A stretch of 64,000 bases of DNA from a virus. Position numbers and translations under genes: made by a program. Shown here piece by piece: positions 31,609 through 63,350 of this stretch (within the stretch, counting starts at the first letter, position 1; every line of letters begins with the position of its first letter). The stretch is from IMG/VR virus record IMGVR_UViG_3300009081_000009, positions 32,001 through 96,000 of that record. One strand, 5' to 3'. A model generated the notes under the pieces. That model saw nothing but the letters and a program-made list of their open reading frames with translations, was not told where the DNA came from and made no database searches.

Positions 31609-32334
31609 ATGGACATGCTAAGTTTAAATGCGCTAATGGAACAGACTAAGATGATTGAAGATATTTCAGCATCTGTAACTGATGATCAGGATTATAACGT
31701 TATGACTCAACGGTCTAATGTTGTTATGGAATCTGTAGATGATGTCAATGGAATACTATCAAGAGGAAATGATATCAACAATGTGATTGATTTTTCTGAC
31801 TTAGAAAATGCTGTTAGCGGATTGACGGAATGCAATAACACCAACTTAGGAACGCAAGTATCTAATAAAATGAAGGAAAATATGAAAGATCCAAAAGCAA
31901 ACCCAATAGTAAAACCAAGTGCTCCAAAGGCACCAATACAGGAAGCAAGCGCAAGCAACCCATCTGCTGGTGTAACTAGCGCGAATGCTTTTATGAATGC
32001 AACCCCAATCAAGCAAACTGAATTTGTTACTGCAAAAACAGCAGCAAAAGTAAGCACTGAACTTGAAAAGGCTAATACAGCATCAGAATTGCCTGTAACT
32101 GAACATAAAAATGATAAAGTAGTTGATACCCAAGCTGATAAAGCCATGAATCAAATGCGTAAAGATGCGGATGATAAAAAGAAATGGGAAGAAGTATCAA
32201 AGAAACAAACTAAATTATGTAATAATTCCGCTAAATTTGAGTCCTTTATGGAATCTATGAAAACCGACGACAATAAAGTTTTGGTTGAAAGTTTCACTAA
32301 AGCATTCAATGTATTAATTAAAAAACATATATAA
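31609..32334 (+). CDS. late protein with the shared KFESFMES..LVES motif at its C-terminus
   Basis: 241 aa; late promoter; GGAG SD. Confidence 0.8.
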   Translation: MDMLSLNALMEQTKMIEDISASVTDDQDYNVMTQRSNVVMESVDDVNGILSRGNDINNVIDFSDLENAVSGLTECNNTNLGTQVSNKMKENMKDPKANPIVKPSAPKAPIQEASASNPSAGVTSANAFMNATPIKQTEFVTAKTAAKVSTELEKANTASELPVTEHKNDKVVDTQADKAMNQMRKDADDKKKWEEVSKKQTKLCNNSAKFESFMESMKTDDNKVLVESFTKAFNVLIKKHI

Positions 32335-32355
32335 TTTATTTCAAAATTATTTTTT

Positions 32356-32394
32356 AAAAAGTGATATAATATTTTATGTCACTTTTTCTTTTTT
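32356..32394 (+). terminator. intrinsic terminator
   Basis: AAAAAGTGATATAA...TTATGTCACTTTTT. Confidence 0.6.
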
Positions 32395-32447
32395 ATCTAT
32401 ATTTATAAGTAATCCCGGTCGGGAGACAAACAGGTAAATATATATAT

Positions 32448-35297
32448 ATGCAAGAAGAACAGACTAAAAAGTCTATGTGGTCAGCTATTCACCACGATAG
32501 AGCAAAAAACTTAATGTTCCTATGGTACACAGATGGAACTAGAACAGCAGTAAGAACAAAACACAGATTTTTTACCCCAATACGTGGAGAATATGGATCA
32601 TCTCCTAGTGGTATGAAAGATATTTATGGTCGTGATATGTATGAGGCCATAGTTGATAGTCGTACTGAAATGGATATAAAAAATGCCAACATAGGAAGAC
32701 ATAATCACATTTCTGAATGTGATATCGATTTTAGAACTAGATGGCTTCAACGAGCATATCAAGAATATGATGACCTTAGATTTAATGTAAAGGATATCAA
32801 TATATGTTATCTTGATATTGAGGTGGCTACTAAAGGTAAATTCCCATCCGCATCTAAAGCAGCCTACCCAATCAATTGTGTTACTATTTATTTTTCTAAA
32901 TATGACAAATATTATACATACGGATTAAATCAAGAACTTAAACCTGAGACAACGGAAACTCTTAAATCACATAACTGTGAATATATTAATTGTGCTACTG
33001 AAAGAGAGTTATTACATAAATTATTCACTGCTATTGGAACTAATGAAGTCGATATATTAACTCATTGGAATGGTGATTTTTTCGATATTCCTTATATAGT
33101 GAAACGAGCTGAATTACTGGAAGTCCCTCTTAAATTATTGAGTAGATTACCTGAACAATTTAAAAGTGCTTATATAAGCAAGCAAGATGGTTCCCTTATA
33201 ATTGGTGGAACTGAGAATATTGACTTTTTAAAACTATATAGAAAGTATACGTTCTCCGAACGCGATAACTATAAATTAGATACCATCGGTTTTGTTGAAT
33301 GTGGTGAACGAAAAGCACCATTACCTAATGGATATTTAAGTTATATGACTGACTGGGATAACTTTATCCTATATAACTTTCAAGACGTTAGACTTATGAC
33401 TAAGATTGAAGGTAATTGTCGAATGTTCGATACTACCTTTACTGCATGTTCGGAAGCAAAGGTTCCATTCTCTGCTATATTTGAAGCTAAGAAGATGCTT
33501 GTAGGATTTATATTGAACTTCCTACACAAGCGTAATCTTGTAATGCCTCCTCTTAAAGAAAATACACGTGAATGGTTTCCGGGTGCATATGTATATGCAA
33601 CAGCAGGATATTATCTACATCTAGTGTCCTATGACTATAGATCTATGTATCCCTCTATTATGATGGGTGCTAATATTAGTCCAGAAACAAAGGTATTGTA
33701 TCCTATAGATGAAGTAATCCCAGAGGAAATATTAAAAACCCTTGTTCGAAGTCCATGGACAGGAAATAATACCCGACAAGTATTTTATAGACGAGATGTT
33801 ACAGGTATTGTGCCTCAAGTTGTTAAGATATTGTTTGATGGTCGTACAGATCTGAAATTGCTAATGAAAAAAGCTAGTAAAGCTGGTGATACTCATTTAG
33901 CTGATTTCTATGACATGAAGCAGAAAACGTACAAAATTTTAGGTAATTCTCTATATGGCTTATTGGGTAATCCATACTTCCAGTTATATGATATTGATAA
34001 TTCAGCATCAATTACTGCATTCGGACAGGCATTAATCACTAGCACAGTTGATCAATTATGTACGTACATAGATACTCAAATGAGTTCGGATGCTAGATTT
34101 GATGCGTTATTTGGTTATAAAGCACCCATAGATCCTGCATTAACCGGAACATATGAAAACAAAGAAGGGTTAACTATGTATCGTCGTGTAAGTCATGGCG
34201 ATACCGACTCTTTCTTCGTAAAATATACCGACATATATAAGCCATATATGGAAAATGTTGGAAAAAAAGTAGAAGTTATTGTATTTAATGGCACTACTGT
34301 TGTCGAAAGAAATACATATAATCTTCCTACTGAAGAAATAGCATCTAAGAAATATTTTAATGCGATGTGTACTAAGTATTGTCCATCATGGACAGATCCT
34401 GAAACAGATGATAAGAAAAAGAAAAAAGCATTTGCCGAGGGAATCGTATTCGGTAAAGGATATCGTGTCATATATAACAGATTCTGTCTAACTGATTTCT
34501 GTCGTATTATGGATGCTGGTATCATGGAAGAAAAATTAGCTGAATTCATGAGTGATTATGCTAAGCATTGGAATTACTATGAAAACACTTTATTCCTTAA
34601 ACGTGAAAAGTGTATTCATCAAGCTATTGTTACTGCAAAAAAGAAATACATCTGTAATATTGAAAGCAACGAAGATGAAAAATATTTAGATAAAGAAACG
34701 TTTTTACCTAAAGAAAAATTCGGCATCACTGGTCTTGAAATAGTTCGTAGTTCAACCACACCATTTTCTAGAGATAGAATTATGAAGTTGATAAAAATGA
34801 TGTTTAAGACCATGGATAAAGCAATTATTCGTGATGAATATCTAAAGGTAAAGATCGAGTTCTTCCAGAAAATTGATAGAGGTGAATACTACGATATATC
34901 AATTCCATCTGGTGTTAAATCCGATCCACCTAAATATTCTGACTATATCACGTGGAGTGATGAGGAGAAAACTAAAGTTGACTGGAGACTTCGCGCAGGG
35001 TCTGTGTGGAATTTCTTAATAGAAAACGACGAGGTTCTGAAAAATATGACATTAGAACCAATTTTTGAAGCATCTAAAGTAAAGTTTATTAAAGTTTGTG
35101 AGAACAAATATAAAATAAACGCAGTTGCTTTCGTTGGTGATAAATGCCCTGATAGATTATTTGAAATATTCACTCCTAATTGGGATGAACAATGGATAAA
35201 AACATTTGCTCAAACTATGGATAGACTATTTGATGCAGTAGGTTGGGGTGTTGGATTGGAAAATGATGAACGTGATACTATGGTAGATATACTTTAA
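32448..35297 (+). CDS. gp43: gp43-like family B DNA polymerase
   Basis: ExoI LDIEV, ExoII WNGDFFDIPY, ExoIII YNFQDV, motif A DYRSMYPSI, motif B KILGNSLYG, motif C GDTDS, KKKY. Confidence 0.96.
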   Translation: MQEEQTKKSMWSAIHHDRAKNLMFLWYTDGTRTAVRTKHRFFTPIRGEYGSSPSGMKDIYGRDMYEAIVDSRTEMDIKNANIGRHNHISECDIDFRTRWLQRAYQEYDDLRFNVKDINICYLDIEVATKGKFPSASKAAYPINCVTIYFSKYDKYYTYGLNQELKPETTETLKSHNCEYINCATERELLHKLFTAIGTNEVDILTHWNGDFFDIPYIVKRAELLEVPLKLLSRLPEQFKSAYISKQDGSLIIGGTENIDFLKLYRKYTFSERDNYKLDTIGFVECGERKAPLPNGYLSYMTDWDNFILYNFQDVRLMTKIEGNCRMFDTTFTACSEAKVPFSAIFEAKKMLVGFILNFLHKRNLVMPPLKENTREWFPGAYVYATAGYYLHLVSYDYRSMYPSIMMGANISPETKVLYPIDEVIPEEILKTLVRSPWTGNNTRQVFYRRDVTGIVPQVVKILFDGRTDLKLLMKKASKAGDTHLADFYDMKQKTYKILGNSLYGLLGNPYFQLYDIDNSASITAFGQALITSTVDQLCTYIDTQMSSDARFDALFGYKAPIDPALTGTYENKEGLTMYRRVSHGDTDSFFVKYTDIYKPYMENVGKKVEVIVFNGTTVVERNTYNLPTEEIASKKYFNAMCTKYCPSWTDPETDDKKKKKAFAEGIVFGKGYRVIYNRFCLTDFCRIMDAGIMEEKLAEFMSDYAKHWNYYENTLFLKREKCIHQAIVTAKKKYICNIESNEDEKYLDKETFLPKEKFGITGLEIVRSSTTPFSRDRIMKLIKMMFKTMDKAIIRDEYLKVKIEFFQKIDRGEYYDISIPSGVKSDPPKYSDYITWSDEEKTKVDWRLRAGSVWNFLIENDEVLKNMTLEPIFEASKVKFIKVCENKYKINAVAFVGDKCPDRLFEIFTPNWDEQWIKTFAQTMDRLFDAVGWGVGLENDERDTMVDIL

Positions 35298-35452
35298 GCA
35301 TATTTATCAACATTAGCTGAATTCTCACATCTCGTTATTTTATTAACGAGATGTTTTTTCATTTCTGGTAATTTTATAGGTCTATTACTTAAAAAATTAG
35401 ATTGAATCGCGTAATAATATGCATATGGATTTATATCAGATGTGATGTTCAT
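35294..35452 (-). CDS. possible 52-aa ORF
   Basis: MNITSDINPYAYYYAIQSNF...; TAATG-coupled to the 35452-35808 gene, but overlaps a terminator. Confidence 0.35.
   Translation of the reverse strand: MNITSDINPYAYYYAIQSNFLSNRPIKLPEMKKHLVNKITRCENSANVDKYA
35327..35359 (+). terminator. intrinsic terminator after gp43
   Basis: ACATCTCGTT...AACGAGATGT-TTTTT. Confidence 0.7.
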
Positions 35453-35808
35453 TAACTTTCTCCATAACTTGCACTATAATTACTGGTTTCGTTCGATTTT
35501 AATGCATCTTTTCCTGTTGATGTGCGTCCAACTGGTGGCATTTGTGCAATTCTGGCTCCCATTTGAGACATATTTGCTATATTATTCTTATCATCTGGTA
35601 ATGTTTGTTGAAAATAATCTGTACTAGGTTTGATGTAATCTATAGCACTTGCTGGACTTGGGTGTGTCACCGTTTGTCCATTAGGTTTACCATTAGCATC
35701 ATCCGTACTTATACTTTCTATAATAATAAGACCTTCTTTAATAGTATCTATTAATATTGGGTCTACATCATGCATAGAAGTTAAGAAAGATTCAAATTTA
35801 TTATTCAT
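35452..35808 (-). CDS. small late protein with N-terminal KFESFLTS..LIDTI motif
   Basis: 118 aa; TATAAACTA at 35831-35839 (-). Confidence 0.75.
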   Translation of the reverse strand: MNNKFESFLTSMHDVDPILIDTIKEGLIIIESISTDDANGKPNGQTVTHPSPASAIDYIKPSTDYFQQTLPDDKNNIANMSQMGARIAQMPPVGRTSTGKDALKSNETSNYSASYGES

Positions 35809-35879
35809 ATTACTCAGTCCTGATTAAAAATAGTTTATACTTACATGAAAAACTTGCTATATTTATAGGAACGAGGTTT

Positions 35880-36914
35880 ATGATGAGTAATATGGATATA
35901 TTTTCAGGTGATGGAATAGATGAAGTAAATAAAATGATGCTTACTTCTAAGCAAAAGGTAAGTGATAGCCTACCATGGGTAGCAAAATATAGTCCGAAAT
36001 GCGTTGATGATGTAATTCTACCTCAGAAATTACGCAATATGATTAAATTTGCTTTACAAAATAATAAATTCACTCATTTTTGCTTTCATTCGGGAAAACC
36101 CGGAACAGGAAAGACAAGTACTGCAATTGCAATCGCGGAAGAATTTGAAACCGACTATCAAGTTTTTTATATTTCCGAAAAACCAATGGAATGCATCGAC
36201 AGTATTAGAAATTATGCATCTCAAAAAAATGTAGATGGTAAACCACGTTTTGTTATATTGGATGAGGCCGACACTCCAAAGATGCAAGATCCATCTAAAT
36301 TCTACACAGCATTACAACCATTGATTGAATCAACTACATCAACCCTTAGATTCATACTAACATGTAACAATCTATATAAAATACAACCAGCCATCTTATC
36401 TAGATGCACACCAATATCATTTGCATATGATGTTAATGATGCTGATATTAAACTGCAAGTATTTCGTCGAATGAAAGAGATCGCTAAAAATGAAGTCCTT
36501 GATAACGGTGGTACTGTTGATAATGAAACAATCAAGGCTATAATAAAATTCTATTATCCTGATATTAGATCTATTACTCAACAACTCCAAGTAAATTATA
36601 TGGAGAATCTTGGTTCGATTGCAGGGACACCATCGCTAATTTCATATGAAAACCTAGATACTATTTGGGATTATATTCTAAAGGTAGATGAGGAGAATCT
36701 ACGTAAATTCGTAACATTGCATGTTGTTGATTTTGTATCTGTATATGCACCATTTGGAGCATATGTAATGGAACGCATCGATAAAAAATATAGACTTAGC
36801 TTCTCTGTATTACTTGGTAAATATCAAGTACAGTCAGCAATGCCAGCAGTTGATCAAGAAATTAATCTAAACTCATTTTTTGCAAGTATAATGCTGTTAT
36901 TGCAAGGTAAATAA
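35880..36914 (+). CDS. gp44: gp44-like clamp loader large subunit (AAA+)
   Basis: WVAKYSP, GKPGTGKTS, ILDEAD, FILTCN, ILSRC, YYPDIR. Confidence 0.93.
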   Translation: MMSNMDIFSGDGIDEVNKMMLTSKQKVSDSLPWVAKYSPKCVDDVILPQKLRNMIKFALQNNKFTHFCFHSGKPGTGKTSTAIAIAEEFETDYQVFYISEKPMECIDSIRNYASQKNVDGKPRFVILDEADTPKMQDPSKFYTALQPLIESTTSTLRFILTCNNLYKIQPAILSRCTPISFAYDVNDADIKLQVFRRMKEIAKNEVLDNGGTVDNETIKAIIKFYYPDIRSITQQLQVNYMENLGSIAGTPSLISYENLDTIWDYILKVDEENLRKFVTLHVVDFVSVYAPFGAYVMERIDKKYRLSFSVLLGKYQVQSAMPAVDQEINLNSFFASIMLLLQGK

Positions 36915-37361
36915 ATGGCTAATTTTGATTATTTTGCATTCATGCATAACCGCAGATCCTCAATTGAACCAACTGAGGATGAAAAGCGTGAATTCAATTT
37001 ATTTATGACTCAAATGGTATTGTCTATGGATACAAGACAATCAGTTATTAATATATTGGATAAAATAAATACTAAAGAATTTTTTTCATTGCCAAATGAA
37101 ATTCAATGCATGGCATTTACAACACTGGATGGTGCTTCATTGAATCTTAAATGGAAGAAATCTAAAGCGGGTTCTCAAGAATCACATAAAGAAACCATTG
37201 AAAAAATAATGAAAGTATATAAGTTATCTCATAATGATGCTGAATCATGTATAAGATTTAATACTATTAATATGAATGAATTAAATGAATTATATACACG
37301 TATATATGATACAGATGATATAAAATTCAGAGCGACAAAGGCATCAAAGAAATCTAAATGA
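36915..37361 (+). CDS. gp62: gp62-like clamp loader small subunit
   Basis: Directly after gp44; FNLFM...LSM, KW.K, IMKVYKLSHNDA pattern. Confidence 0.75.
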   Translation: MANFDYFAFMHNRRSSIEPTEDEKREFNLFMTQMVLSMDTRQSVINILDKINTKEFFSLPNEIQCMAFTTLDGASLNLKWKKSKAGSQESHKETIEKIMKVYKLSHNDAESCIRFNTINMNELNELYTRIYDTDDIKFRATKASKKSK

Positions 37362-37600
37362 ACCAAAATGTGGTGGATATGACTCAAAATGTGGTAGATA
37401 TAAATAATGAAGATATTACAACTGTTATGACTCTGTTAGGTGTTCCTTATGATACAGCAAAGGAATTAATCCGAGATGGATTGAATATGCAATATTTAAG
37501 AACAGGATTAAAGGATGATATTGAACGAGAAACTACTCAACTTAGAGATGAGTATATTAATCGTATCAATGAAATGATTAAAATTGAATTTGAGTCATAA
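37358..37600 (+). CDS. hypothetical protein
   Basis: 80 aa; ATGA-type overlap; begins with a 21-bp tandem duplication (MNQNVVD MTQNVVD). Confidence 0.65.
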   Translation: MNQNVVDMTQNVVDINNEDITTVMTLLGVPYDTAKELIRDGLNMQYLRTGLKDDIERETTQLRDEYINRINEMIKIEFES

Positions 37601-38284
37601 TTACTGCATTTTTTCTAATACAGTTTTATCGATTGCAGGTGCTTCTGTAGCTGGTTGATTCATTTCTTGTTCTTCCAATTTATCGGCAACTTCCATTTCC
37701 TTTGACTCATCTGTTATACCGCTAGAAAAGTCAACTAATATCTGTTGAAGAATTGGATCTGCTTCTTGTCCAGCAAATATGCCTGTGCCATATGCGAAAT
37801 CAATTAAATAATCAATTATAGTCTGACCATTTATATCAGTCTCGTCAATTACATTTTTTATAATTACCTTTTCTTTATCTGGTGTGGATTCTTTTTCTTC
37901 ATATGAAAAATCAGTATTTAGTATTTTTTTAATTAAATCATAATTAACAACTTCTGTAAATGTACCTGTCGCTGCTGATATCAAACACATCAATACGGTA
38001 TCGCCATATGAATTTTTATGTGCTAACATTAATGGATTTACTGATAATACATCAGCAATGCCGTTTTCTGCCCATATATGTAACTTTGTCGTCCATTCAC
38101 CACGATCAGTAGGAATTCTAGGAATGAATTGAACTGGGAATGTTTTTAATGCCCGTCTTTCGCCATCGGAAATAGCTTCAACTTCCTTTTCAAAGGTTCC
38201 TTGAATACTCTCAAGCAAATCAAAGGAATCAGGATTCTGATCTTTTAGCTCATTTAATAATACGTGAAATGCTCGTTTATCCAT
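37601..38284 (-). CDS. ankyrin-repeat-like late protein
   Basis: GEWTTKLHIWAENG, KNSYGDTVLMCLI, DINGQTIIDYL; TATAAACTA at 38306-38314 (-). Confidence 0.6.
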   Translation of the reverse strand: MDKRAFHVLLNELKDQNPDSFDLLESIQGTFEKEVEAISDGERRALKTFPVQFIPRIPTDRGEWTTKLHIWAENGIADVLSVNPLMLAHKNSYGDTVLMCLISAATGTFTEVVNYDLIKKILNTDFSYEEKESTPDKEKVIIKNVIDETDINGQTIIDYLIDFAYGTGIFAGQEADPILQQILVDFSSGITDESKEMEVADKLEEQEMNQPATEAPAIDKTVLEKMQ

Positions 38285-38328
38285 AATAATTATAGTATTT
38301 ATTATTAGTTTATAATATGATATAAAAA

Positions 38329-38352
38329 TAAAAGGGCGTTACCGCCCTTTTT
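38329..38352. terminator. intrinsic terminator (A/T-flanked; ends dUTPase transcript)
   Basis: AAAAGGGCG-TTAC-CGCCCTTTTT. Confidence 0.8.
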
Positions 38353-38354
38353 AA

Positions 38355-38849
38355 TTATTTACTTGTGCTTCCGAAGCCACCAAGTCGATCTCCTCCTACA
38401 GTGGATTCATCATCATCAGCAATTAAATATTTCTGAAACATCATCTGAGCCATTGCTTCGCCCTTTCCGATGGTCAGTGTATCATTTCCCTGATTATGTA
38501 ACTTTACGAATATCTCGCCTTCTTCCATCTCACCCTTTTTATTCATTACTGCTACAGGCTTATAATAATCACAATCTATAATGCCTGTTGAATTAGCTAA
38601 TCGTACTGAATACTTAAATCCATGTCCTGATCTAACATATGCCATAAGAACTTCATCTTCTAGCATATATGCTTTAATTTTTGTGGGAATAGCCTTTGAT
38701 ATCTGACCTGCTTCTATAACAATATCATTTCCTGTATTGTTAAATATATCATAGCATGCAGAAAACTTAGTACCTCTGCGTGGCATTAATACATTAGATG
38801 CCTCAGATGAATACTTACTAACAACTTCAAATCCTCTTGATCTAGCCAT
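38355..38849 (-). CDS. dut: trimeric dUTPase
   Basis: SACYD, VRSG, GIIDCDY, MAQ, RLGGFGST. Confidence 0.95.
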   Translation of the reverse strand: MARSRGFEVVSKYSSEASNVLMPRRGTKFSACYDIFNNTGNDIVIEAGQISKAIPTKIKAYMLEDEVLMAYVRSGHGFKYSVRLANSTGIIDCDYYKPVAVMNKKGEMEEGEIFVKLHNQGNDTLTIGKGEAMAQMMFQKYLIADDDESTVGGDRLGGFGSTSK

Positions 38850-38969
38850 TTTTAACTCCTATTTAGTGGTTAATTTAAATTTAGCAAATTTTTTCAAAAT
38901 TATATACATAATATAAACAAATGTAAATGTATGATAGTTTTTCAAAAAAATATTAAAAAACGTCATGCT

Positions 38970-38978
38970 TATAAACTA
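38970..38978 (+). promoter_or_regulatory. late-type promoter TATAAACTA (sheath operon)
   Basis: Upstream of the tail sheath gene. Confidence 0.75.
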
Positions 38979-39015
38979 TAAGTAAAGAATTATAGTACTT
39001 ATATAGGAGTTATAT

Positions 39016-42234: not shown

Positions 42235-42238
42235 TTAA

Positions 42239-42919: not shown

Positions 42920-42921
42920 TT

Positions 42922-52185: not shown

Positions 52186-52188
52186 CAC

Positions 52189-53493: not shown

Positions 53494-54725
53494 TGACACT
53501 ATTAACTGATAAATATTATGAAGCTGTTGTTATAACAGATGAAATTGACCCGAATCATGCTGGTGCTGTTCGTGTACATGTTCTTGGTGTTACTGATAAA
53601 TTAGAACCTGATAATCAACCATTTGTAGTACCTTCTATAAATGGAATGCAAGCAGTTCCCACCAAAGGAACCCTGCTTTACGTTGTATTTGATGAGGGTG
53701 ATATAAATATGGGTAGATATTTCTTTGTAGCACAAGACAAAAATTATTTACCGAGTGAGTATGTAACAGATTATCCGAATGTAGCTGTAACTAATTTGGG
53801 TGATGATACATTTTTATTAACTCATAATAGAAGAACTAGAACAAGTATAATCACACATCCAAGTGATAGTAGCGTTACGTGGAATAATTTTGGTGCTATT
53901 ATACATGATAGCGATAAAGGATATACCAATGCTGGTTATGGAGCACTTAATAATCAAGGAAGTAAAATACAATCAGTCTTAACTGAAGGTACTGTGGATG
54001 TATTTTGTTGTACAGCTATCGGTAACAATATTGCTAATGGTGGTGCTCATCAAGGATCTGAATATTTATATGCTACTCATATATCTAAAGCAACTGTTGA
54101 TGCCATAAATGGTAAAGTTGTTTCTGACGATGAAAACAGTGAGGGTAATCCAGCACTTGAAGATGGTAGCAGTGAATTGGTTATTAATTCTATATACGAT
54201 GCGACTGGAAATGAAGTAGCAACAGTTGAATATTATCCAACTGAATCATATATCGAACGAAAGGATAAAGATATATCACATATAATTGTAGCGAACACTG
54301 GTAATAACAATTTCGTTGATGCTGCATCTAAAGTTGTCGAGAAGAATAGTAATTATGGGTGTCATTATTTGATAGGTCGAAGTAATGGAACTCCACCAGT
54401 TGACTCTGAACGCGAAGGTGATTCGACATCACGTGCATCTGGATTCATGCAATTTGTTGAGACTACAAACGATGTTTATTTTGGAAGTAATGCTAAACTA
54501 TTACCATCAACTGATGCAGCTAATAAGAATGCGGTTGTTATCATGTTAGTGGGTGATGGTACATCATATACCCAATACCAATATGATATGCTAAATAAAT
54601 TGATCGCCCATGTAAAATATGTAGCTGGTGATACAGGGGTTAAATTTTTCGTTACGGATAATATGGTAGCAGTTCCAGCATATGAAACGATTGGAGCATT
54701 AGATCCATCGAAGGTTAATAAATAA
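53493..54725 (+). CDS. gp5-like spike (OB fold) fused to a degenerate Amidase_2/PGRP-like domain
   Basis: IDPNHAGAVRVHVLG, VPTKGTLLYVVFDEGD; C-terminal ISHIIVANT, CHYLIGR, NKNAVVIMLVG, TQYQYDMLNKLI. Confidence 0.75.
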   Translation: MTLLTDKYYEAVVITDEIDPNHAGAVRVHVLGVTDKLEPDNQPFVVPSINGMQAVPTKGTLLYVVFDEGDINMGRYFFVAQDKNYLPSEYVTDYPNVAVTNLGDDTFLLTHNRRTRTSIITHPSDSSVTWNNFGAIIHDSDKGYTNAGYGALNNQGSKIQSVLTEGTVDVFCCTAIGNNIANGGAHQGSEYLYATHISKATVDAINGKVVSDDENSEGNPALEDGSSELVINSIYDATGNEVATVEYYPTESYIERKDKDISHIIVANTGNNNFVDAASKVVEKNSNYGCHYLIGRSNGTPPVDSEREGDSTSRASGFMQFVETTNDVYFGSNAKLLPSTDAANKNAVVIMLVGDGTSYTQYQYDMLNKLIAHVKYVAGDTGVKFFVTDNMVAVPAYETIGALDPSKVNK

Positions 54726-54727
54726 TT

Positions 54728-56554
54728 ATGGCTAAATGTATTAAAGATATTATAGATAACAATGTTGCTAGTGGTGGTATTGGAAATGCTTCCAGTGCAT
54801 CATCGACAACAGCATATCCAAGTGGGTATGGAACATATATAAATGCTCCAATCTCATCTAATGGAGATATAAAATACGCTGATAATTTTGTTGACGCTCT
54901 AAGTAGTGCTACGATGAAACTTAGAAATACCGACTGTACTCAAACTGTATTAGATTTCTTTTCTAATCAATTTCCTGCTGCATCTAGCATGGCAAAAAAA
55001 TCATATGATTGGGTTTCTGATAATGCAAATTTACAAAGTGGAATGTCTGCATTAGGTAATAAATTAAAAGGTGGTAGTCTAGAAAAAATGACAGATCAGT
55101 TCTGTGATACAGTGACAACATTATCCAGAACTCTTATATTTTATCTAGACACAGCTACTAAAGCAGCATTTGTATTATTTAAGAAAATCGATGCATTAAA
55201 ACGAAAAATAGAAAAGGCTTTGCTTGAATTTACCGATGCAGTTAGAAACTGTATTGTTAGTGTTATAGTAGATGCAAAAAATGCAATTAATCGAGTAGTT
55301 CGAAAGGTTTTGGATTTTGATATAGTCCTTGATTTAATGAGACATTGCCCTTGTATAACAAAAATAATAGCTAGTTTATTTAATTGTAAACGAGATTCCG
55401 ATGGTAATAAATTAACAACTCCAGAAGAGGTATTAAACTGCGTCCTTGAAAAGTATACATTAGATCCAACTCAAATCATAAATGCAATTAATAATTTTAT
55501 TGATAATACAATATTAAGTACTATAAATAAAGGCTTTAATATGTTGGATGAATTCATAAAAACTACTATGGAATTATTGATGGCTCCTTTTAGAGCATTA
55601 ATTCGATTGTATGCTAAATTATTAAATACGAAAATAAATATGACGTTTATTATTCGTGGATTAGGCCCAGCGGAATGCTTACTTATATATACAAAGGAGC
55701 ACACTAAATCAGGTGGTTCTTATCTTGGTATGAGTATAATAGATATGGTAAACACATTAAAATCATGGGCTAATTGCTTTGAGTTTGCGTGTCAATCATT
55801 CACGGAAGATATGGCAACTAAAATAAAGGAATTAAATGAAAATCTTAGATTAGATGATAAATACTGGCGTGATGTTATGTCAATTGATTTATACCAATCG
55901 GCTATTGGCGCAAAGGTGCAATCAAATCAGCCTAGACCTGCTATGATTCGAGAAATATTTACAAAGAATCAAGGTAAAGGAAAAAACGTATTTATTGGTA
56001 TTATTGATTCCTTTAAGCAAGTTGGAAAAATAACAATAGATACAGGTCTATCAGATAAAACACTTGGAGAAACAGCAGAAGCCGTTAAATTTAAGGATGG
56101 GCCTGATAATGAAAGTGCTAATACTAATAATGGAATAAAAACATTAAATTCTACAGTCGAAAATAATTTAATGAGCATGGAATTAAATCTTGCTAGTGAT
56201 ACATCATCTTTTTATGTAGAAAAATTATTACAGCTAGTTGATTGGGAAGGAACATTCAAAAAAAGTGGTGCTCATAATACTCAAATTGATAAATTAATTG
56301 CAACCCAACAAACATTAACTCCTGATTACTCAACCATTCAAATATCAACTGCATATGTATCTAATAATGATCGAGTGTATTATGCAGGAGATGCTACGGA
56401 AACCATTTCTGATGTAAAGCCTACATACGAAATTACTGATGACTATAATAGTACGAGTATAAACAAAATAAATAACTATGAAACTCCGGTGAGAAATGAA
56501 TCCGAATCATTAACGGATTACTATAGACGCTGGTATAATGGAGCTATTGCATAA
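54728..56554 (+). CDS. hypothetical helical Cys-containing protein (baseplate operon)
   Basis: 608 aa ORF, co-transcribed. Confidence 0.75.
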   Translation: MAKCIKDIIDNNVASGGIGNASSASSTTAYPSGYGTYINAPISSNGDIKYADNFVDALSSATMKLRNTDCTQTVLDFFSNQFPAASSMAKKSYDWVSDNANLQSGMSALGNKLKGGSLEKMTDQFCDTVTTLSRTLIFYLDTATKAAFVLFKKIDALKRKIEKALLEFTDAVRNCIVSVIVDAKNAINRVVRKVLDFDIVLDLMRHCPCITKIIASLFNCKRDSDGNKLTTPEEVLNCVLEKYTLDPTQIINAINNFIDNTILSTINKGFNMLDEFIKTTMELLMAPFRALIRLYAKLLNTKINMTFIIRGLGPAECLLIYTKEHTKSGGSYLGMSIIDMVNTLKSWANCFEFACQSFTEDMATKIKELNENLRLDDKYWRDVMSIDLYQSAIGAKVQSNQPRPAMIREIFTKNQGKGKNVFIGIIDSFKQVGKITIDTGLSDKTLGETAEAVKFKDGPDNESANTNNGIKTLNSTVENNLMSMELNLASDTSSFYVEKLLQLVDWEGTFKKSGAHNTQIDKLIATQQTLTPDYSTIQISTAYVSNNDRVYYAGDATETISDVKPTYEITDDYNSTSINKINNYETPVRNESESLTDYYRRWYNGAIA

Positions 56555-57060
56555 TGGGAATAAATTACAAGACAGATACCAATAAAGGATATTATCAGAT
56601 ACTAAATAAAGAAAAATATTATCCTACTGGAAAGGTTCCTATATACAAGTCAGGATGGGAGCTACAAGTATTTCATGCACTTGATGTAAATCCTAATGTA
56701 TTATATTGGGGTTATGAGCCATTGGAAATATATTATTTTAGTCCACGATATTTAAAATATACCGTATATTACCCTGATATTCTATGTCATATCCGTATGG
56801 ATAGCGGAGTTGAGCAAAAACTATTATTGGAAATTAAACCAAATAAATTTGTGGTTATGCCAAAAGTTCCAACTAAACCGAAAGAAAATACTCCACAAAA
56901 ATGGGATAAATATCGAAAGGCGACTATTAATTATAATAATAATTTAAAGGATTATATGGTTAATATGGCTAAATGGGAAGCAGCGCAACAATGGTGTTTA
57001 AAGAACAATGTAATGTGGCGAATTCTAAGCGAAAAAAATACCAATACTTTATTTAAATAA
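56554..57060 (+). CDS. gp4: gp4-like head completion nuclease (TnsA-like PD-(D/E)XK)
   Basis: YKSGWE, NPNVLYWGYE, YYPD, LEIKP, NMAKWEAAQQWC. Confidence 0.9.
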   Translation: MGINYKTDTNKGYYQILNKEKYYPTGKVPIYKSGWELQVFHALDVNPNVLYWGYEPLEIYYFSPRYLKYTVYYPDILCHIRMDSGVEQKLLLEIKPNKFVVMPKVPTKPKENTPQKWDKYRKATINYNNNLKDYMVNMAKWEAAQQWCLKNNVMWRILSEKNTNTLFK

Positions 57061-57096
57061 TGTATAATTTATAGTAAGATTAAATTAAGGAATTAT

Positions 57097-57528
57097 ATGT
57101 CCTGCTGTAACCAAACTGCACAGTTGGATACTATCTATTTATCTTTACATAAGCGGTTACTTGAATTCGGAAATGAGATATATGGCGAACAGCTAATGGC
57201 TTCTCATCCAAGTACCTTCATGTGGATATTTACATTTTATTCAGATGCTGAATTATGTGAAGAATGCCAATTTTCATTCTCTGCGATGAATAAATGGTTT
57301 CATGATTATGGTTTATTTAATGATCCAATTAGAAATGTTAAATGGATTATTGAAGATGAACCAGAAAAGAATTTCATTTATAAAGAATTGGGGTTTTCAA
57401 AAACTCCAATGCACTTATTTTGTGATAAAGATGGAAAAATAATAGATATTATAATGGGATTTCCTACTCCAGAATGGTTAGAGAAACATATATTACCTTT
57501 AATACAAGCGGATATGAATATATTATGA
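57097..57528 (+). CDS. thioredoxin-like protein
   Basis: FYS...CEEC and KTPMHLF..DGK (cis-Pro loop). Confidence 0.75.
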   Translation: MSCCNQTAQLDTIYLSLHKRLLEFGNEIYGEQLMASHPSTFMWIFTFYSDAELCEECQFSFSAMNKWFHDYGLFNDPIRNVKWIIEDEPEKNFIYKELGFSKTPMHLFCDKDGKIIDIIMGFPTPEWLEKHILPLIQADMNIL

Positions 57529-58565
57529 ACAAAACCAAACCCAATGCCGTAGTTATCGGCTATACTTTAGATTCGGCTATATTAGCTCGTGAACTTGCTC
57601 AAAAAGGAAATAAGCAAGTTACTTATCTAAAGACTGGTAGATTAGGTTATCCACTGGATGACCTTAAAGACTACATTTCATATGAAGATGTGATTAATTT
57701 AAACACGTTGGGTGTCGATGTTGAATATAGAAAGCTAATCAATGGATCATATGTCTTTATGCCATATGATGCATTAAAGTTTGTAAATAATCGAAATGGT
57801 TTATTGAGTTATCCATTAAATAAGTCAAGTTTTGATTCAGCCGAAGAATGGGAGCAATTAGAATTTTGCCTTCATAAATTATCAGAATTTCGCGAAACAC
57901 TTGAAGACTCAACTAATTTCATCAATATTTATAAAAACTTCTTCCCTAAATGGTTATATGATAGCCTATTAAAGTATATGGGTATCAATAAATGGGGTAA
58001 AATAAGACAATCTCAGTTTAGTAGAGAAGCACTGGCTAAAGAAATTAATCTATCATATCTCGACTCAACCAATACAGGAACCGCATTCAAACCCGTAAAT
58101 GGATATGAAGATATATGTAATCGATTGCTGAATCATCCCAATATAAAAATTGGAAGTATTCAATTGGATGATATCAGAAAAATACTAATTAAACGACATG
58201 TAAATAGCGATATCATTGTATGCGATAATAGAATTGACTATATTTGCAACTACACATATGGTAATTTTGATAGAGTACAGTTTAGGTCAGAACCCGTAAT
58301 TGAGCGAAATTTAGAGGAATTTATTGATATCAGTGAAGGTGTGGTGATAACCCCCATGAAAGATTATTGGTGTATTTCAGCGGATAGAGGGGATATAACC
58401 AAGCTATATAGTACAGCAGTGCAAGATCTGAAATATACGAAGCAATCTGACATTCCAATGACGTTAGCCAACAAGAAAATGTATGCAGAATACAAGAAAA
58501 TGCTAACCCTATACTCAGGTAAGATACTAGATTTGGATAGTAGAGTGGTTACTATTATAAAGTAG
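57525..58565 (+). CDS. UDP-galactopyranose mutase (Glf)-like protein, degenerate FAD motif
   Basis: VIGYTLDSAILARELAQKG, LLSYPLN, KWG, PVNGYEDICNRLLNHPNIKI; ATG 57525 coupled to the thioredoxin stop. Confidence 0.65.
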   Translation: MNKTKPNAVVIGYTLDSAILARELAQKGNKQVTYLKTGRLGYPLDDLKDYISYEDVINLNTLGVDVEYRKLINGSYVFMPYDALKFVNNRNGLLSYPLNKSSFDSAEEWEQLEFCLHKLSEFRETLEDSTNFINIYKNFFPKWLYDSLLKYMGINKWGKIRQSQFSREALAKEINLSYLDSTNTGTAFKPVNGYEDICNRLLNHPNIKIGSIQLDDIRKILIKRHVNSDIIVCDNRIDYICNYTYGNFDRVQFRSEPVIERNLEEFIDISEGVVITPMKDYWCISADRGDITKLYSTAVQDLKYTKQSDIPMTLANKKMYAEYKKMLTLYSGKILDLDSRVVTIIK

Positions 58566-58578
58566 ACTATATTAGGCA

Positions 58579-58607
58579 TTGACAAATGAAACGTAATCAT
58601 CTATATT
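58579..58607 (+). promoter_or_regulatory. sigma70 promoter TTGACA-N17-TATATT
   Basis: -35 at 58579-58584, -10 at 58602-58607. Confidence 0.75.
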
Positions 58608-58635
58608 ATAGGTAGAGATAACCAAAGGAGTCGAT

Positions 58636-58788
58636 ATGCAGAACACTAACCAAACAAACGATACCGAAAGTCAATCAGCATTTTTGTCTATAGAGGAAGT
58701 CGCTGATTTTCACAAGTGGCAAGCGGATAAGTTGAATACTGGAAGCAAATACGAAATCATCCAAGATGGTAAATTACCGACCCCATGA
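58636..58788 (+). CDS. 50-aa hypothetical protein
   Basis: MQNTNQTNDTESQSAFLSIEEVADFHKWQADKLNTGSKYEIIQDGKLPTP; AAGGAG SD; ATGA overlap with the next gene. Confidence 0.65.
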   Translation: MQNTNQTNDTESQSAFLSIEEVADFHKWQADKLNTGSKYEIIQDGKLPTP

Positions 58789-59696
58789 AAGTTGCCTTAA
58801 TAATCCCATTATATAAGCAATCTATGTATTGGCATAGATTGCTTTCTGGTATTCAGAAACAGTCATTGAAGCCTGATACTGTGTACATTATAGTAGACAG
58901 GCCATCGGATGATTTAGGGGCTTTGGACAGCACAGGAAAGCCATTAAACGACAAATGGAATGCTCTGGCTGAGATAAGTAAGCTAAACGCATCAATTCAT
59001 GACATAAACATAAAATTGATTGTAATTGATAAAGTTCCTAATGGAATTCAGAGAACAAAACCCGACTCGCCTGTATTTTTGGCTGGATATGCTAGAAATA
59101 TAGGAATTGAACAGGCCATTAAAGACGGTTCCGATATCTTCGTTTTTATGGATGGTGATTGTATACCACAAGACGATTTTATTAAATCTCATGTAGAATT
59201 GTGCTCAAATAAATTACCTATAATGAGTATTGGAAGACGCAGAGAATCTAAATTGCGTTGGATGGATCAACGGGAAGTAAGTGCTAATTTAACTCATTTG
59301 AGATTGTTTGATAAAATGGGTAGCTTGATTAATAACCCAGATTTATTGAAACAATGTTTAATTGTATGGTCATGCAATATTGCAATGAATTTAGCTGCTA
59401 TTAAATTAATTTATAAATTCAATGAAGCATACTATCAACGAACTGAGATATTTAATAGTACATTTAATGGCGTATGGGGTGGTGAAGATAGTTTTTTGGG
59501 TATAACTGCTTGGTATTGTCGTATTTTTATACATACATTAGGTAATATAAAATCAGGCGTTGAACATATTGATCATCAACGACCAGAATCTATATATAAC
59601 AAAGAACATAAAATATTTTTTGATGCTCAGTGTGATATGTTACGAAAGAAACTCGTATTAAATCCAATCAATCTAAATTTATTGAATTATACTTAA
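58785..59696 (+). CDS. GT2 family glycosyltransferase
   Basis: LIIPLY, ARNIG, FMDGDCIP, WSCN, WGGED. Confidence 0.9.
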   Translation: MKVALIIPLYKQSMYWHRLLSGIQKQSLKPDTVYIIVDRPSDDLGALDSTGKPLNDKWNALAEISKLNASIHDINIKLIVIDKVPNGIQRTKPDSPVFLAGYARNIGIEQAIKDGSDIFVFMDGDCIPQDDFIKSHVELCSNKLPIMSIGRRRESKLRWMDQREVSANLTHLRLFDKMGSLINNPDLLKQCLIVWSCNIAMNLAAIKLIYKFNEAYYQRTEIFNSTFNGVWGGEDSFLGITAWYCRIFIHTLGNIKSGVEHIDHQRPESIYNKEHKIFFDAQCDMLRKKLVLNPINLNLLNYT

Positions 59697-60577
59697 TCTT
59701 TATAATATCCATTCATAGGATCTTTTAATTTAGATGTTTCTAATTCAAATGCACTGGTGTTATATTGAGTAGTTCCATTTTTTAACATAGTTGAATCAAT
59801 ACCAATACTCGTATTATCTCTTAATCCACGGAATGCATCATTAAATGATCCTTGGAATGTATTAGGAACATCAAAAGTAACTTTATATTCCATTATATCT
59901 TTACTATCATTTTTTATTACCATCGATGATATGTCAGATAAAACCGCAGAATTAAATTCAAACACTTGTGATACAACTGTGTCAATCGTATCTTTTCTAG
60001 GTTTATTAAATTCAGTAAGTGCAACATCGTTTACAAATTGTTCTTGTAAAATAGCAATATAGATACCTAATTTCTGGAATGAGCTTTTAGGTTTTAATAT
60101 TTGAGATGAATAAAATTGATTTATAATAGCATTAAAAAATTGATACCATAGAAGGTGTTTATCCTCTCGTATCTCTAATACAACCTTACCGCCTTCAGTT
60201 GTGCCCATTATAACAGGATATTTAATAGATTTAATCGAATCTATATAATTTTCAGTGCTTATTTTTGATGATGTGTGTGGAATGGTGACATTACTACATG
60301 CCCATTTTAATTCGATTTGAGGAGGTTCATCGGCATAATAGAATACCTTTTTCCAATTATTAAATGCATCATTGTATACATGACTTCCATGAGATATTTT
60401 TTGGTTTTTTGATAATGAATCTGTTTTTGATTCCTTTTCCATTTTTGTGATAGCTTTACCAACATATTCTCCGTATAATCCAACTAAGAATTTATTTGTT
60501 CTGTATACACTGGCATTGCCATAGAATTCATCTACACGCTCTTTCATTGTTTTTTCTATCGAATGTACTATAGGCAT
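59693..60577 (-). CDS. tail-tube-fold protein (gp54/gp19-like)
   Basis: YRTNKFLV, CSNVTIP, QVFEFNSAV..I..., EYKVTF; in a late operon with the gp3-like gene. Confidence 0.5.
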   Translation of the reverse strand: MPIVHSIEKTMKERVDEFYGNASVYRTNKFLVGLYGEYVGKAITKMEKESKTDSLSKNQKISHGSHVYNDAFNNWKKVFYYADEPPQIELKWACSNVTIPHTSSKISTENYIDSIKSIKYPVIMGTTEGGKVVLEIREDKHLLWYQFFNAIINQFYSSQILKPKSSFQKLGIYIAILQEQFVNDVALTEFNKPRKDTIDTVVSQVFEFNSAVLSDISSMVIKNDSKDIMEYKVTFDVPNTFQGSFNDAFRGLRDNTSIGIDSTMLKNGTTQYNTSAFELETSKLKDPMNGYYKD

Positions 60578-60585
60578 AAAATTCC

Positions 60586-61206
60586 TTAATTAGCTATACA
60601 GCTTGGTGTAGTATGTTCTTCAGGTGGTGCCATTCGTTCAATTGTTCGAAGCGAATATAAGAAACTCACTGTGAATTTAACTGGATCTGGGCCTAAAAAA
60701 TTAAGTGTTAATGGTTCTAATTCAATTGGGTAACATCTCTGAAATCTAATAATCTGATGCTTCTGATATGAATCGTCTGCCATGTGAATATCAATAAATG
60801 GAATCCAAGTACGTCTATTTCTATAATGACGATCATGTCCATATACACGGTGATTTAGATCTGTTATTGGAAATGCATCAGTTTGTCCACTCTGAATAGT
60901 TTCCATATAACGATTTAAAGTCCAATAATTTTCCATTCTGTCATCGCATATCATAGTGATAGTTAATACTTTATCATAATATTCATTATCTTCTGTGATG
61001 GGAATATGAACCATTGATTTATAACTACCATCCATTTTATATTTCAATGATAATCCCGGTGCTACGAATGCTGTAATGTTTCCATTTACAGTTTCTGATG
61101 ATGGCGCATCTGCCTGTGTATATGACACGGGAATCGGCCCAATATTACATCTAGCCGTTCCTTGGTGTAATCTACCTATATTTCTACTTAAAAGTGGGCC
61201 GTCCAT
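60586..61206 (-). CDS. gp3-like tail tube terminator
   Basis: APGLSL, LTITMICDDRMENY, IRFQRCYPIEL..L, FTVSFLY. Confidence 0.7.
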   Translation of the reverse strand: MDGPLLSRNIGRLHQGTARCNIGPIPVSYTQADAPSSETVNGNITAFVAPGLSLKYKMDGSYKSMVHIPITEDNEYYDKVLTITMICDDRMENYWTLNRYMETIQSGQTDAFPITDLNHRVYGHDRHYRNRRTWIPFIDIHMADDSYQKHQIIRFQRCYPIELEPLTLNFLGPDPVKFTVSFLYSLRTIERMAPPEEHTTPSCIAN

Positions 61207-61213
61207 TATTTAC

Positions 61214-61810
61214 CTATAATTTTATATAAAACTCATCACCTGATCGTGAGGTAAAATAAATTTCATCTATCCTATCAACTAGTTTATTAAAAACGGGTGA
61301 ATTTATAAATTTATCACATGACCCTTTTTTGACATACGCAATTGTAGCATGAGGAATATAAACATCAAATTTATCTGTATATTCCATATTATCACATATC
61401 AATTTATTTAATTCCATCAATTGATCGCTTTTTATATTAATTTTTAATACATCAAATGATGGATTGTTGTCAAAAATATCAATATTACCACACTGGATAT
61501 TAATAGATCCATATCCATTTACTAATTTGGTTAAATTATTTGGATCAGGATCATGTAATCCATATTTAACCGTAACGTGTGATGTTGTCTCATAACCCTC
61601 TATACCATTGTCTAAATCTATATATAAGGCTTCTTCCGGTATATTTTCCTTCGCCCATTCGGTAATTAATTGAGTGATGTAGTCATTTAAATTAAGCATA
61701 GCACAGCTAAAGCTATAAGTATGTTCTTTATTAGGTTGTTTTTGACTAGATTCCAAAATTCGTTTTTTCGCTCGTCTTGGTAGATTAGATAGGTATTTAG
61801 AGTAGTTCAT
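61214..61810 (-). CDS. 2H phosphoesterase, Acb1 (T4 gp57B)-like anti-CBASS candidate
   Basis: Two HxT motifs: SHVTVKYG and YIPHATIAY. Confidence 0.8.
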   Translation of the reverse strand: MNYSKYLSNLPRRAKKRILESSQKQPNKEHTYSFSCAMLNLNDYITQLITEWAKENIPEEALYIDLDNGIEGYETTSHVTVKYGLHDPDPNNLTKLVNGYGSINIQCGNIDIFDNNPSFDVLKINIKSDQLMELNKLICDNMEYTDKFDVYIPHATIAYVKKGSCDKFINSPVFNKLVDRIDEIYFTSRSGDEFYIKL

Positions 61811-61830
61811 ATAGTCTTTTTATTTAATAG

Positions 61831-61844
61831 TAGTTTATAAACTA
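61831..61844. promoter_or_regulatory. palindromic bidirectional late promoter TAGTTTATAAACTA
   Basis: Perfect 14-bp palindrome reading TATAAACTA on both strands between divergent genes. Confidence 0.7.
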
Positions 61845-61878
61845 TTACATTGAATCATAATTTAACAAAGGACTTATT

Positions 61879-62028
61879 ATGGCAGATCAAGTAGAAACAA
61901 CCGAAGAACCTATTCCATACGTTAATATGTTTGGTGCTGGATGGGAAGTTAGCGGAGCACAGTATACACCAACTAAATTAGGTGGTGTAGAATGCGATGA
62001 AAACGGAAATATAAAACCAATACAATAA
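61879..62028 (+). CDS. 49-aa hypothetical late protein
   Basis: MADQVETTEEPIPYVNMFGAGWEVSGAQYTPTKLGGVECDENGNIKPIQ; AAGGA SD; terminator follows. Confidence 0.7.
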   Translation: MADQVETTEEPIPYVNMFGAGWEVSGAQYTPTKLGGVECDENGNIKPIQ

Positions 62029-62052
62029 AAGGAGCTTGTTAGCTCCTTTTTT
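62027..62052. terminator. bidirectional intrinsic terminator
   Basis: AAAAGGAGCT-TGTT-AGCTCCTTTT. Confidence 0.8.
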
Positions 62053-62054
62053 AT

Positions 62055-63044
62055 TTATTTGAATTTGATTGGTTTTGGATCTGCCTTTACTTCGGATTTT
62101 GGTTTAACTACTCCCGTTTTATCACTCAGTACTGGATTCATTTTAGGTGCATTGGTAGGTACTTTATTATTAGTGGTTGTCTTTGCATCAATTCCATTTG
62201 TCTTATTAGTTACATCTGAAACATTCGCTGATTTAGAACCCTTAATTATATCAGTTGGTACATTTTGTTTAGTGAGTGCATCTTTAGCTTTAACAACACC
62301 AACTAAATCACCCTTTGGCTTAGCTGCATTGGAATCAACCTTGACTTCGGCTTCTGATTTCAATTCAACAATCTGACCACCATCTTTCTTAATAATAGGA
62401 ACTCCAATTTCTTGCTTTACAGTAGTCGTAGAGCCATCCCATTTTGTTACAGTCGTGGTGGTAAATGCATTGGATGGTTTAACGATGCCAACTAAATCAC
62501 CCTTTGGCTTAGCTGCATTGGAATCGACCTTAGTTTTGGTAGTTGTATCTGTTTTTATCGCATTAGCTGGTATATTAGCTATTTTTGGTACTGCTACAGA
62601 TACAGTCTTAGTTGTTACTGTGTCACCATTTACAGTTGTCTTAAATTCGGTAGTTGGTTTAACTACTCCAGTATTATCTTCCCATTCACCGTGATTTATA
62701 TTCTTAATGAATTTCTGCATTATTCCCATAATGCTATTGTCTTCATAATCAACTGTAGTTTCCTTTGTTTTATCACCAACAGTCTTAAACTCTGAATTTG
62801 GTTTTACGATGCCAGTTTGGTCATTTAATTCCAAATCGCGCTTTTTCTTATCTTTTTCAGTTAGATAGTCTTTATAATCAGTAAAGTTTTCTACACCGTC
62901 ATTAGCAACAGGAGTCCAGAATGGAAATAGTGCTTTTCCATCCATTAATTTCTTTTCACGCATTTCGAGTGGCTTGGTGTGATCTAAGTTTTGTTTCAAC
63001 ATTTTCTCAAACATATCGTTTGTAGGCATTTCATATCTTGACAT
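62055..63044 (-). CDS. K/T-rich late protein with five G(I/V)VK(P/A) repeats
   Basis: 329 aa; late promoter at 63070-63078 (-). Confidence 0.8.
   Translation of the reverse strand: MSRYEMPTNDMFEKMLKQNLDHTKPLEMREKKLMDGKALFPFWTPVANDGVENFTDYKDYLTEKDKKKRDLELNDQTGIVKPNSEFKTVGDKTKETTVDYEDNSIMGIMQKFIKNINHGEWEDNTGVVKPTTEFKTTVNGDTVTTKTVSVAVPKIANIPANAIKTDTTTKTKVDSNAAKPKGDLVGIVKPSNAFTTTTVTKWDGSTTTVKQEIGVPIIKKDGGQIVELKSEAEVKVDSNAAKPKGDLVGVVKAKDALTKQNVPTDIIKGSKSANVSDVTNKTNGIDAKTTTNNKVPTNAPKMNPVLSDKTGVVKPKSEVKADPKPIKFK
62299..62525. repeat. 38-bp exact direct repeat inside the CDS
   Basis: CCAACTAAATCACCCTTTGGCTTAGCTGCATTGGAATC at 62299-62336 and 62488-62525. Confidence 0.9.
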
Positions 63045-63069
63045 AGTATATTCCTGTCGGATTTATCAA

Positions 63070-63097
63070 TAGTTTATAAGATTCACATTATAAACTA
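63070..63097. promoter_or_regulatory. divergent pair of late-type promoters
   Basis: TAGTTTATA 63070-63078 (-) and TATAAACTA 63089-63097 (+). Confidence 0.7.
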
Positions 63098-63113
63098 TAA
63101 CAAAGAGGTATAT

Positions 63114-63350
63114 ATGACCAAAAATAAAAAATTTAATGAATTTCTTGAAAGTATTAAAGATGTTAATCCAACTTTGATAGAATCTATTATGCAGGGATAT
63201 GAAATTATACATGAAAGTAGTATAAATAAAGTAAATCAAATTAAAGATACATTAGGAGAACCAGAACCAGAACCAGATCAATTATTAGATGATGAACCTA
63301 CAGAAATAAACCCAGAACAAGATCCTACCCAAGAATATCCAAATATATAA
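63114..63350 (+). CDS. small late protein with N-terminal KFNEFLES..LIESI motif
   Basis: 78 aa; GAGG SD; late promoter. Confidence 0.75.
   Translation: MTKNKKFNEFLESIKDVNPTLIESIMQGYEIIHESSINKVNQIKDTLGEPEPEPDQLLDDEPTEINPEQDPTQEYPNI

Follow-up and report, generated by a model that had tools for sequence, protein, structure and literature searches.

Why should proteins that have nothing else in common carry the same short peptide? This question is raised by a stretch of viral DNA of 64,000 nucleotides (the window), bases 32001-96000 of the IMG/VR virus contig IMGVR_UViG_3300009081_000009, a single sequence of 164.7 kb with a G+C content of ~32%. An earlier note on this DNA had described a segment of about 30 residues, here called the tag, on the products of four late genes starting at window positions 63114 (gene A), 35808 on the minus strand (B), 31609 (C), and 38284 on the minus strand (D), and had proposed that it sends its carriers into the phage head. 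The four segments are found letter for letter at their places in the program translations. We found that the tag is a modular unit on unrelated, putatively late proteins, about a hundred of them, and that it is probably a cleavable capsid-targeting propeptide, analogous to the capsid-targeting sequence (CTS) of the internal proteins of phage T4 and not detectably homologous to it. Those parts of the earlier proposal that computation could address, always by indirect tests, were supported.

Profile tests of the tag

To assess the tag as a family, we built leave-one-out hidden Markov models (HMMs), and found that they recover A (42 bits), C (26 bits), B (20 bits), and a fifth gene, E (15 bits). 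Gene E lies outside the window and is also found by the profile made from the four segments. The best score in 20 shuffled ORFeomes, which served as the control, was 8.6 bits. In addition, none of the composition-preserving shuffles (2000 per tag) reached the real score for A, B, C, or E. The earlier note had named a profile that scores no better than shuffled amphipathic helices as one outcome that would undo its proposal; the real tags outscore the shuffles. Its statement that the proteins are otherwise unrelated also holds, as the best E between the cargo parts of the five is 0.8.

The four-member family proposed in that note stood for A, B, and C and had to be revised for D. As a single sequence, D scores 1.8-4 bits, and 13 of 2000 of its own shuffles score as well. 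Its family comprises 19 orthologs with a conserved N-terminus, one of which reaches 22 bits. When the N-terminus of this ortholog family was compared with the tag profile, the two aligned in register (hhalign Prob 95.6/90.6% in a local run, 82% at E=1e-5 in a second run). Because the single sequence fails but the ortholog-family profile aligns with the tag profile, D is best described from its sequence as a diverged relative of the tag, and not as a clear member.

The tag family in metagenomes

When the four-member profile was run exhaustively with HMMER over 1.84 billion representative proteins (cut-off E<=1e-3), it matched 119 clusters, all of them metagenomic hypothetical proteins. Of 121 proteins from the database and from the genome itself, 101 bear the tag at their very N-terminal end and 7 at the C-terminus; in the other 13 it lies internally or behind a probably miscalled (over-extended) start. 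Thus the tag can sit at either terminus, as the earlier note had suggested, most often at the N-terminal one, and also between domains; a few proteins (P0084, P0028, P0019) have a domain-tag-domain layout. Tagged proteins range from 47 to 737 amino acids (aa), and some have almost no cargo (P0021, 47 aa; P0037, 57 aa). After removal of the tag, 118 cargo sequences fell into 96 blastp clusters, 84 of which are singletons.

Other searches were less productive. We used tblastn to compare P0031, a consensus-like tagged protein, and C with 50,697 phage records, and found no real match. A word-based homolog search with A returned near-identical copies only, the ESM Atlas gave no usable match to the tag of A, and a literature search on the core motif strings of the tag returned no paper.

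A 547-aa multi-domain, putatively late protein of the same genome (genome 19187-20830(-), ~11 kb before the window) weakly resembles the tag over an internal segment, aa 121-141 (FIESFRGNADDSLITCILEGL; 8.7 bits, E 0.08). The segment follows the N-terminal domain, a layout like that of domain-tag-domain members of the database set such as P0084.

Conservation, structure, and selection

We examined conservation in 163 distinct tags anchored on the LIES motif. The tag spans ~34 residues with the consensus M-x2-4-KFxxFLESLK-x4-5-LIES[IV]xxG[FY]xx[CI][FY]E↓[S/N/G], where the arrow marks the putative cut, and its information content is high across ~30 positions. The first helix carries conserved F, F, L, E, S, L, and K, and in the second helix the conserved residues are L (93%), I (79%), E (96%), S (77%), G (89%), F/Y (90%), and C/I (85%). 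Conservation stops at a Glu that is present in 92% of the tags. The residue behind this distal Glu is S, N, or G (1.4 bits), and all later positions carry <=0.64 bit. An end as abrupt as this reads as the signature of a propeptide boundary.

Two near-invariant sites of the gp21 type are visible at the sequence level, L-I-E↓S within the tag and [C/I]-[F/Y]-E↓S/N/G at its end. They fit the L/I-x-E rule of the T4 prohead protease gp21 (PMC9026906). The LxE/S sites that had been read from four sequences recur in the family alignment as near-invariant (L/I)xE-type sites. The proposed helical hairpin likewise agrees with AlphaFold2, which predicts a helix at residues 3-15, a short loop, and a second helix from residue 20; for D, the predicted helices cover residues 3-16 and 18-34.

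At the DNA level, conserved positions use all synonymous codons of Leu (six), Ser (both families), and Gly, and 46% of codon pairs for identical residues differ. With such free use of synonymous codons at conserved residues, selection acts on the peptide, and not on DNA or RNA. This bears on the idea that the likeness is a chance one among amphipathic helices, or a translated nucleotide element such as a regulatory or recombination signal. Such an explanation draws on D, matched by some of its own shuffles, and we regard it as highly improbable: the leave-one-out and shuffle tests are positive, 119 database clusters carry the tag, and synonymous codons vary freely. For A, B, C, and E, this combination of leave-one-out recovery, shuffles, database clusters, and codon usage refutes it.

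A leader of precursors of ribosomally synthesized and post-translationally modified peptides was considered and rejected: the tagged products are whole proteins of up to several hundred residues, and the cargo includes large folded enzymes. The neighbours of the tagged genes are structural and replication genes of the phage.

Late-type promoters and the head module

The earlier note had also claimed a promoter of its own for each gene. We found that the 9-mer TATAAACTA precedes all five genes and ends 7-32 nt before the start codon (7 nt in the case of E). There are 25 copies of this 9-mer in the 164.7-kb genome, and 23 of them are located just upstream of an open reading frame (ORF). It also precedes the tail sheath gene and the gene of a 1490-aa baseplate-wedge-related protein. 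The motif TATAAACT occurs within 60 nt upstream of tagged genes far more often than of others, both in the home genome (4/4 versus 22/198, p=2e-4) and in related loci (72/105 versus 47/383, p=5e-29). Tagged genes that have no TATAAACT are mostly located within arrays, behind another tagged gene.

The phage is a deep-branching relative of T4 from an uncultured lineage. Its family-B DNA polymerase, clamp-loader subunits, tail sheath, and tail tube are all encoded within the window. The head module is located outside the window and consists of the portal, a Peptidase_S77 (gp21-type) prohead protease, a 284-aa scaffold-like ORF, and the major capsid protein. The protease gene (PF03420 at genome 9013-9522(-), E=1e-19) adjoins the genes of the portal and the capsid protein and the scaffold-like ORF; the protease, portal, and capsid genes were identified by PHROG matches. 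Two related contigs, G001 and G002, also encode a Peptidase_S77 prohead protease. The capsid protein has a predicted cleavage site, FLAE↓S, that aligns with the FLTE↓A region of T4 gp23, the maturation cut site of that protein. Identity of the capsid and sheath proteins to any deposited phage is at most 32%, and window DNA 31000-39000 was without a match when searched against deposited phages.

Between the portal and protease genes, in the slot of T4 gene 67, we observed a conserved 56-aa ORF (genome 9554-9724(-), locus L004). It has counterparts in G001 (58 aa) and G002 (57 aa) and carries the hydrophobic-x-E↓S sites LSE↓S and ITE↓S. The CheckV completeness of the 165-kb contig is only 39%, and that of related 45-54-kb fragments is 11-18%. 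Either the genomes of this lineage are very large, or the estimate fails for want of close references.

The tag as a probable capsid-targeting propeptide

T4 provides the precedent for such a role. Its internal proteins carry N-terminal propeptides of 10-19 residues that give affinity for the scaffolding core, and gp21 cuts after L/I-x-E, freeing the mature protein in the head (PMC9026906, PMC3012670). The first 10 residues of IPIII suffice for the packaging of foreign proteins, and Alt has propeptides at both ends (PMC9026906, PMC3012670). In the T4 CTS, the targeting determinants are residues 4 and 7, and the processing determinants are residues 8 and 10 (PMC9026906).

We read the tag as a propeptide of this kind because it occupies a terminal position on unrelated proteins whose genes have late-type promoters, because the genome encodes a gp21-type protease, because the tag has hydrophobic-x-Glu sites, one of them at the border with the cargo, and because the capsid protein has the FLAE↓S site. 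In the mechanism that we propose, the tagged proteins would be made late, alongside the head proteins. The amphipathic helix-loop-helix would bind the scaffolding core of the growing prohead, probably by docking the hydrophobic faces of both helices on the coiled-coil scaffold, and the fused protein would thereby be enclosed. The gp21-type protease would then cut after the conserved Glu, at LIE↓S within the tag and at [C/I][F/Y]E↓ at the border between tag and cargo. Cleavage would free the mature cargo in the head, and the cargo would enter the next host with the DNA. Core binding, packaging, cleavage, and injection of the tagged proteins are inferred.

Several observations weigh against this reading. 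The tagged proteins are known from genes alone, and the tag is absent from phages in culture and from deposited ones. At position P3 of the distal site, 58% of tags have Cys, and not the classical L/I, and the distal Glu is missing from C-terminal copies. The status of TATAAACT as a late promoter derives from the structural genes that it precedes. A length of 34 residues far exceeds that of the T4 propeptides, so the tag could have another partner. The tag profile has no match in the T4 genome (best E 0.17), and its link to leaders of the MKTYQEFIAE type is by analogy only; the parallel with the T4 targeting sequence drawn in the earlier note is one without detectable homology. Against T4 gp67, the tag found nothing in BLASTP and gave an hhalign Prob of 0.8%, and thus shows no homology to it.

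Some of these observations would suit a shared interaction or oligomerisation module that takes diverse late proteins to another hub (a host protein, the membrane, phage DNA, or one another), with no capsid loading and with the Glu in a structural role. A 34-residue amphipathic helix-loop-helix exceeds the need of a T4-type CTS, it has no homology to T4 proteins that bear one, and capsid packaging is itself deduced. We consider such a module rather unlikely, since conservation ends at one Glu followed by a small or polar residue across 96 unrelated cargo clusters, the tag is almost always at the very N-terminus, and tagged genes are strongly enriched behind a promoter motif of structural genes. 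Moreover, host-takeover enzymes such as an ADP-ribosyltransferase (ART) or an S-adenosylmethionine (SAM) lyase, when made late, would come too late unless they were carried into the next cell.

Cargo of the tagged proteins

Most of the cargo is without a Pfam domain. The Pfam matches are ART-PolyVal (3 members, one of them a 737-aa protein with an N-terminal tag), ParB_N, SAM lyase, GNAT, LysM, PEGA, DUF3990, and a few other DUFs. Iyer et al. assigned a repertoire of the ART-PolyVal/ParB_N/GNAT/DUF3990 type to capsid-packaged, injected proteins, with T4 Alt as the prototype (PMC5512222). Alt is a packaged ADP-ribosyltransferase and, together with the polyvalent proteins, provides a precedent (PMC5512222). 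An ADP-ribosyltransferase or a SAM lyase that is made late makes most sense if it is carried into the next cell.

Some small members of 47-78 aa, which have little beyond the tag, may belong to the core and not to the proteins that are delivered. Extended to the family, this would make the tagged proteins mainly parts of the prohead core, like T4 gp67, gp68, and the internal peptides, that build or size the scaffold and are then degraded, not delivered. Gene A fits this well, with 78 aa, a helical N-terminus with LxE sites, and an acidic tail, laid out like T4 gp67 (80 aa), as do the nearly cargo-free P0021 and P0037 and the conservation of the E family over seven clusters. As a general account it is unlikely: many members bear enzymes or large domains (the 737-aa ART, ParB_N, GNAT, SAM lyase), cargo turnover is extreme (84 singleton clusters), and the gp67 slot between portal and protease is already filled by a separate small conserved ORF. 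The core-component explanation overlaps with loading by a propeptide and may be true of some members, A for example.

On a wider proposition, we are evenly divided. The tag would be an independently evolved two-helix loading handle, used N-terminally, C-terminally, or between domains, that marks all head-packaged injected proteins of an uncultured T4-like branch. It would serve about a hundred cargo families, mostly of unknown function and in many cases probably novel effectors of anti-defence or host takeover, and recombination inside the sequence that encodes the tag would exchange the cargo cassettes.

If the tag does load heads, a single 34-residue profile would predict from sequence alone the proteins that an uncultured phage sends into its host along with the DNA, and would provide a list of about a hundred candidate host-takeover or anti-defence proteins, most of them without a known domain. 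Capsid targeting of the T4 kind, which until now has been documented in T-even phages with a leader of 10-19 residues, would be extended to a distant lineage, with a tag that is different, longer, and much more widely deployed. Such a tag could serve as a new handle for packing foreign proteins into phage capsids.

Tandem arrays and probable cassette exchange

The head module and the TATAAACT motif recur in related contigs. We found 9 tagged genes in the 54-kb fragment G001 and 4 in G004, and tandem arrays of up to 6 tagged genes in 4-5 kb (L028, L046). In adjacent genes, the tag DNA is 86-92% identical, and the cargo is without similarity. Similar tag DNA on dissimilar neighbouring cargo suggests that cassettes are exchanged, or that gene conversion takes place, at the tag.

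Two tag subtypes occur in one contig at L046:99-3685(-), and likewise at L047 and L053. Subtype 1, MFHKFLNSLKTPNN...IFE, is found on large proteins (133, 313, and 510 aa), and the other, M..KQKFENFLESLKG...CFE, on small ones. The DNA of neighbouring subtype-1 tags is 91-92% identical despite unrelated cargo.

Comparison with known systems

Like the T4 CTS, the tag is an N-terminal address on otherwise unrelated, in this case putatively late, proteins in a phage with a gp21-type protease, and it ends at a hydrophobic-x-Glu site. Its first helix has two aromatics three apart, followed by [IL]-(x)-E: T4 IPII and IPIII start with MKTYQEFIAE, the tag helix reads F-x-x-F-L-E, and the two share the pattern [YF]xxF[IL](x)E. 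A search for [FYW]xx[FYW][LIMV]x?E at the N-termini of this genome was uninformative. The cargo includes an ADP-ribosyltransferase, the kind of enzyme that Alt is in T4, and Alt is in addition an example of a propeptide at the C-terminus. The tag differs in having ~34 residues and two helices versus 10-19 residues, two or three conserved Glu sites versus one, and internal copies between domains. It also differs in being deployed on 96 cargo clusters, with up to 9 genes per 54-kb fragment.

Tagged proteins resemble T4 gp67 and gp68 in small size, in their putatively late expression, and in a helical N-terminal part with LxE sites. An acidic tail like that of A is present in gp67, whose hexapeptide LIEAIK resembles LIESIK of the tag. 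In contrast to gp67 and gp68, the tagged genes lie outside the portal-protease interval, which holds the different 56-aa ORF. The polyvalent proteins (PMC5512222) have the same domain repertoire (ART-PolyVal, ParB_N, GNAT, DUF3990), are encoded among late or structural genes, and are likewise predicted to be delivered together with the DNA. Their domains are strung together in a giant polypeptide, whereas tagged effectors are mostly separate small genes, each with its own tag. Only a few have the tag between domains (P0084 and the weak case at genome 19187-20830), and most carry one small cargo.

Encapsulin cargo-loading peptides offer a further analogy. They are short transferable peptides, usually at one terminus with either possible, that bring unrelated cargo into an HK97-fold shell, as the tag may do. 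Unlike what we propose for the tag, these peptides attach to the shell protein itself, no maturation protease cuts them off, and they act in a cellular compartment, not a virion.

Genes of the home genome and their neighbours

The positions of the five genes, and of the tags and promoter motifs of the four within the window, are collected in Table 1.

Table 1. Tagged genes, tags, and late-type promoter motifs (window coordinates unless marked as genome)
Feature	Position	Strand	Description
Promoter motif of C	31569-31577	+	TATAAACTA, late-type
Gene C	31609-32334	+	241 aa; cargo mostly low-complexity; tag C-terminal
Tag of C	32230-32322	+	C-terminal, aa 208-238
Tag of B	35713-35805	-	N-terminal, aa 2-32; ends IIIE↓S
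Gene B	35452-35808	-	118 aa; N-terminal tag and unrelated cargo forming its own cluster
Promoter motif of B	35831-35839	-	TATAAACTA
Gene D	37601-38284	-	227 aa; diverged tag and cargo of weak ankyrin-repeat-like fold similarity
Tag-like N-terminus of D	38183-38281	-	aa 2-34; supported by profile-profile comparison of the ortholog family only
Promoter motif of D	38306-38314	-	TATAAACTA
Promoter motif of A	63089-63097	+	TATAAACTA; paired with divergent TATAAACTA at 63070-63078(-) of gene 62055-63044(-)
Gene A	63114-63350	+	78 aa; tag and 43-aa acidic, Pro-rich tail
Tag of A	63123-63218	+	N-terminal, aa 4-35; FLE↓S, LIE↓S, IHE↓S
Gene E	genome 150287-150706	+	139 aa; window-scale 118287-118706, beyond the window; locus L003

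The tag of C keeps the sites FME↓S and LVE↓S; its distal Glu is missing, and it ends in ...LIKKHI. This architecture, with the tag at the C-terminus, is conserved in the ortholog P0068. Gene C has a weak match to phrog_12512, a family of unknown function, and beyond this match Pfam and PHROGs gave nothing useful for the five tagged proteins. Pfam finds no domain in D, and Foldseek matches to its AlphaFold2 model (pLDDT 81) are weak and all to ankyrin-repeat proteins (E ~1e-2, TM ~0.35). The cargo of E belongs to the largest conserved cargo family, the one that covers seven clusters, with a GYADVR-like motif directly behind the tag.

Another back-to-back divergent pair of TATAAACTA motifs is located at window 61831-61844, with gene 61214-61810(-) on one side and a small ORF on the plus strand on the other. 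In PHROGs, the product of this gene, which has a late-type promoter, matches an RNA ligase / 2H-phosphoesterase-like family (phrog_755, E=8e-9).

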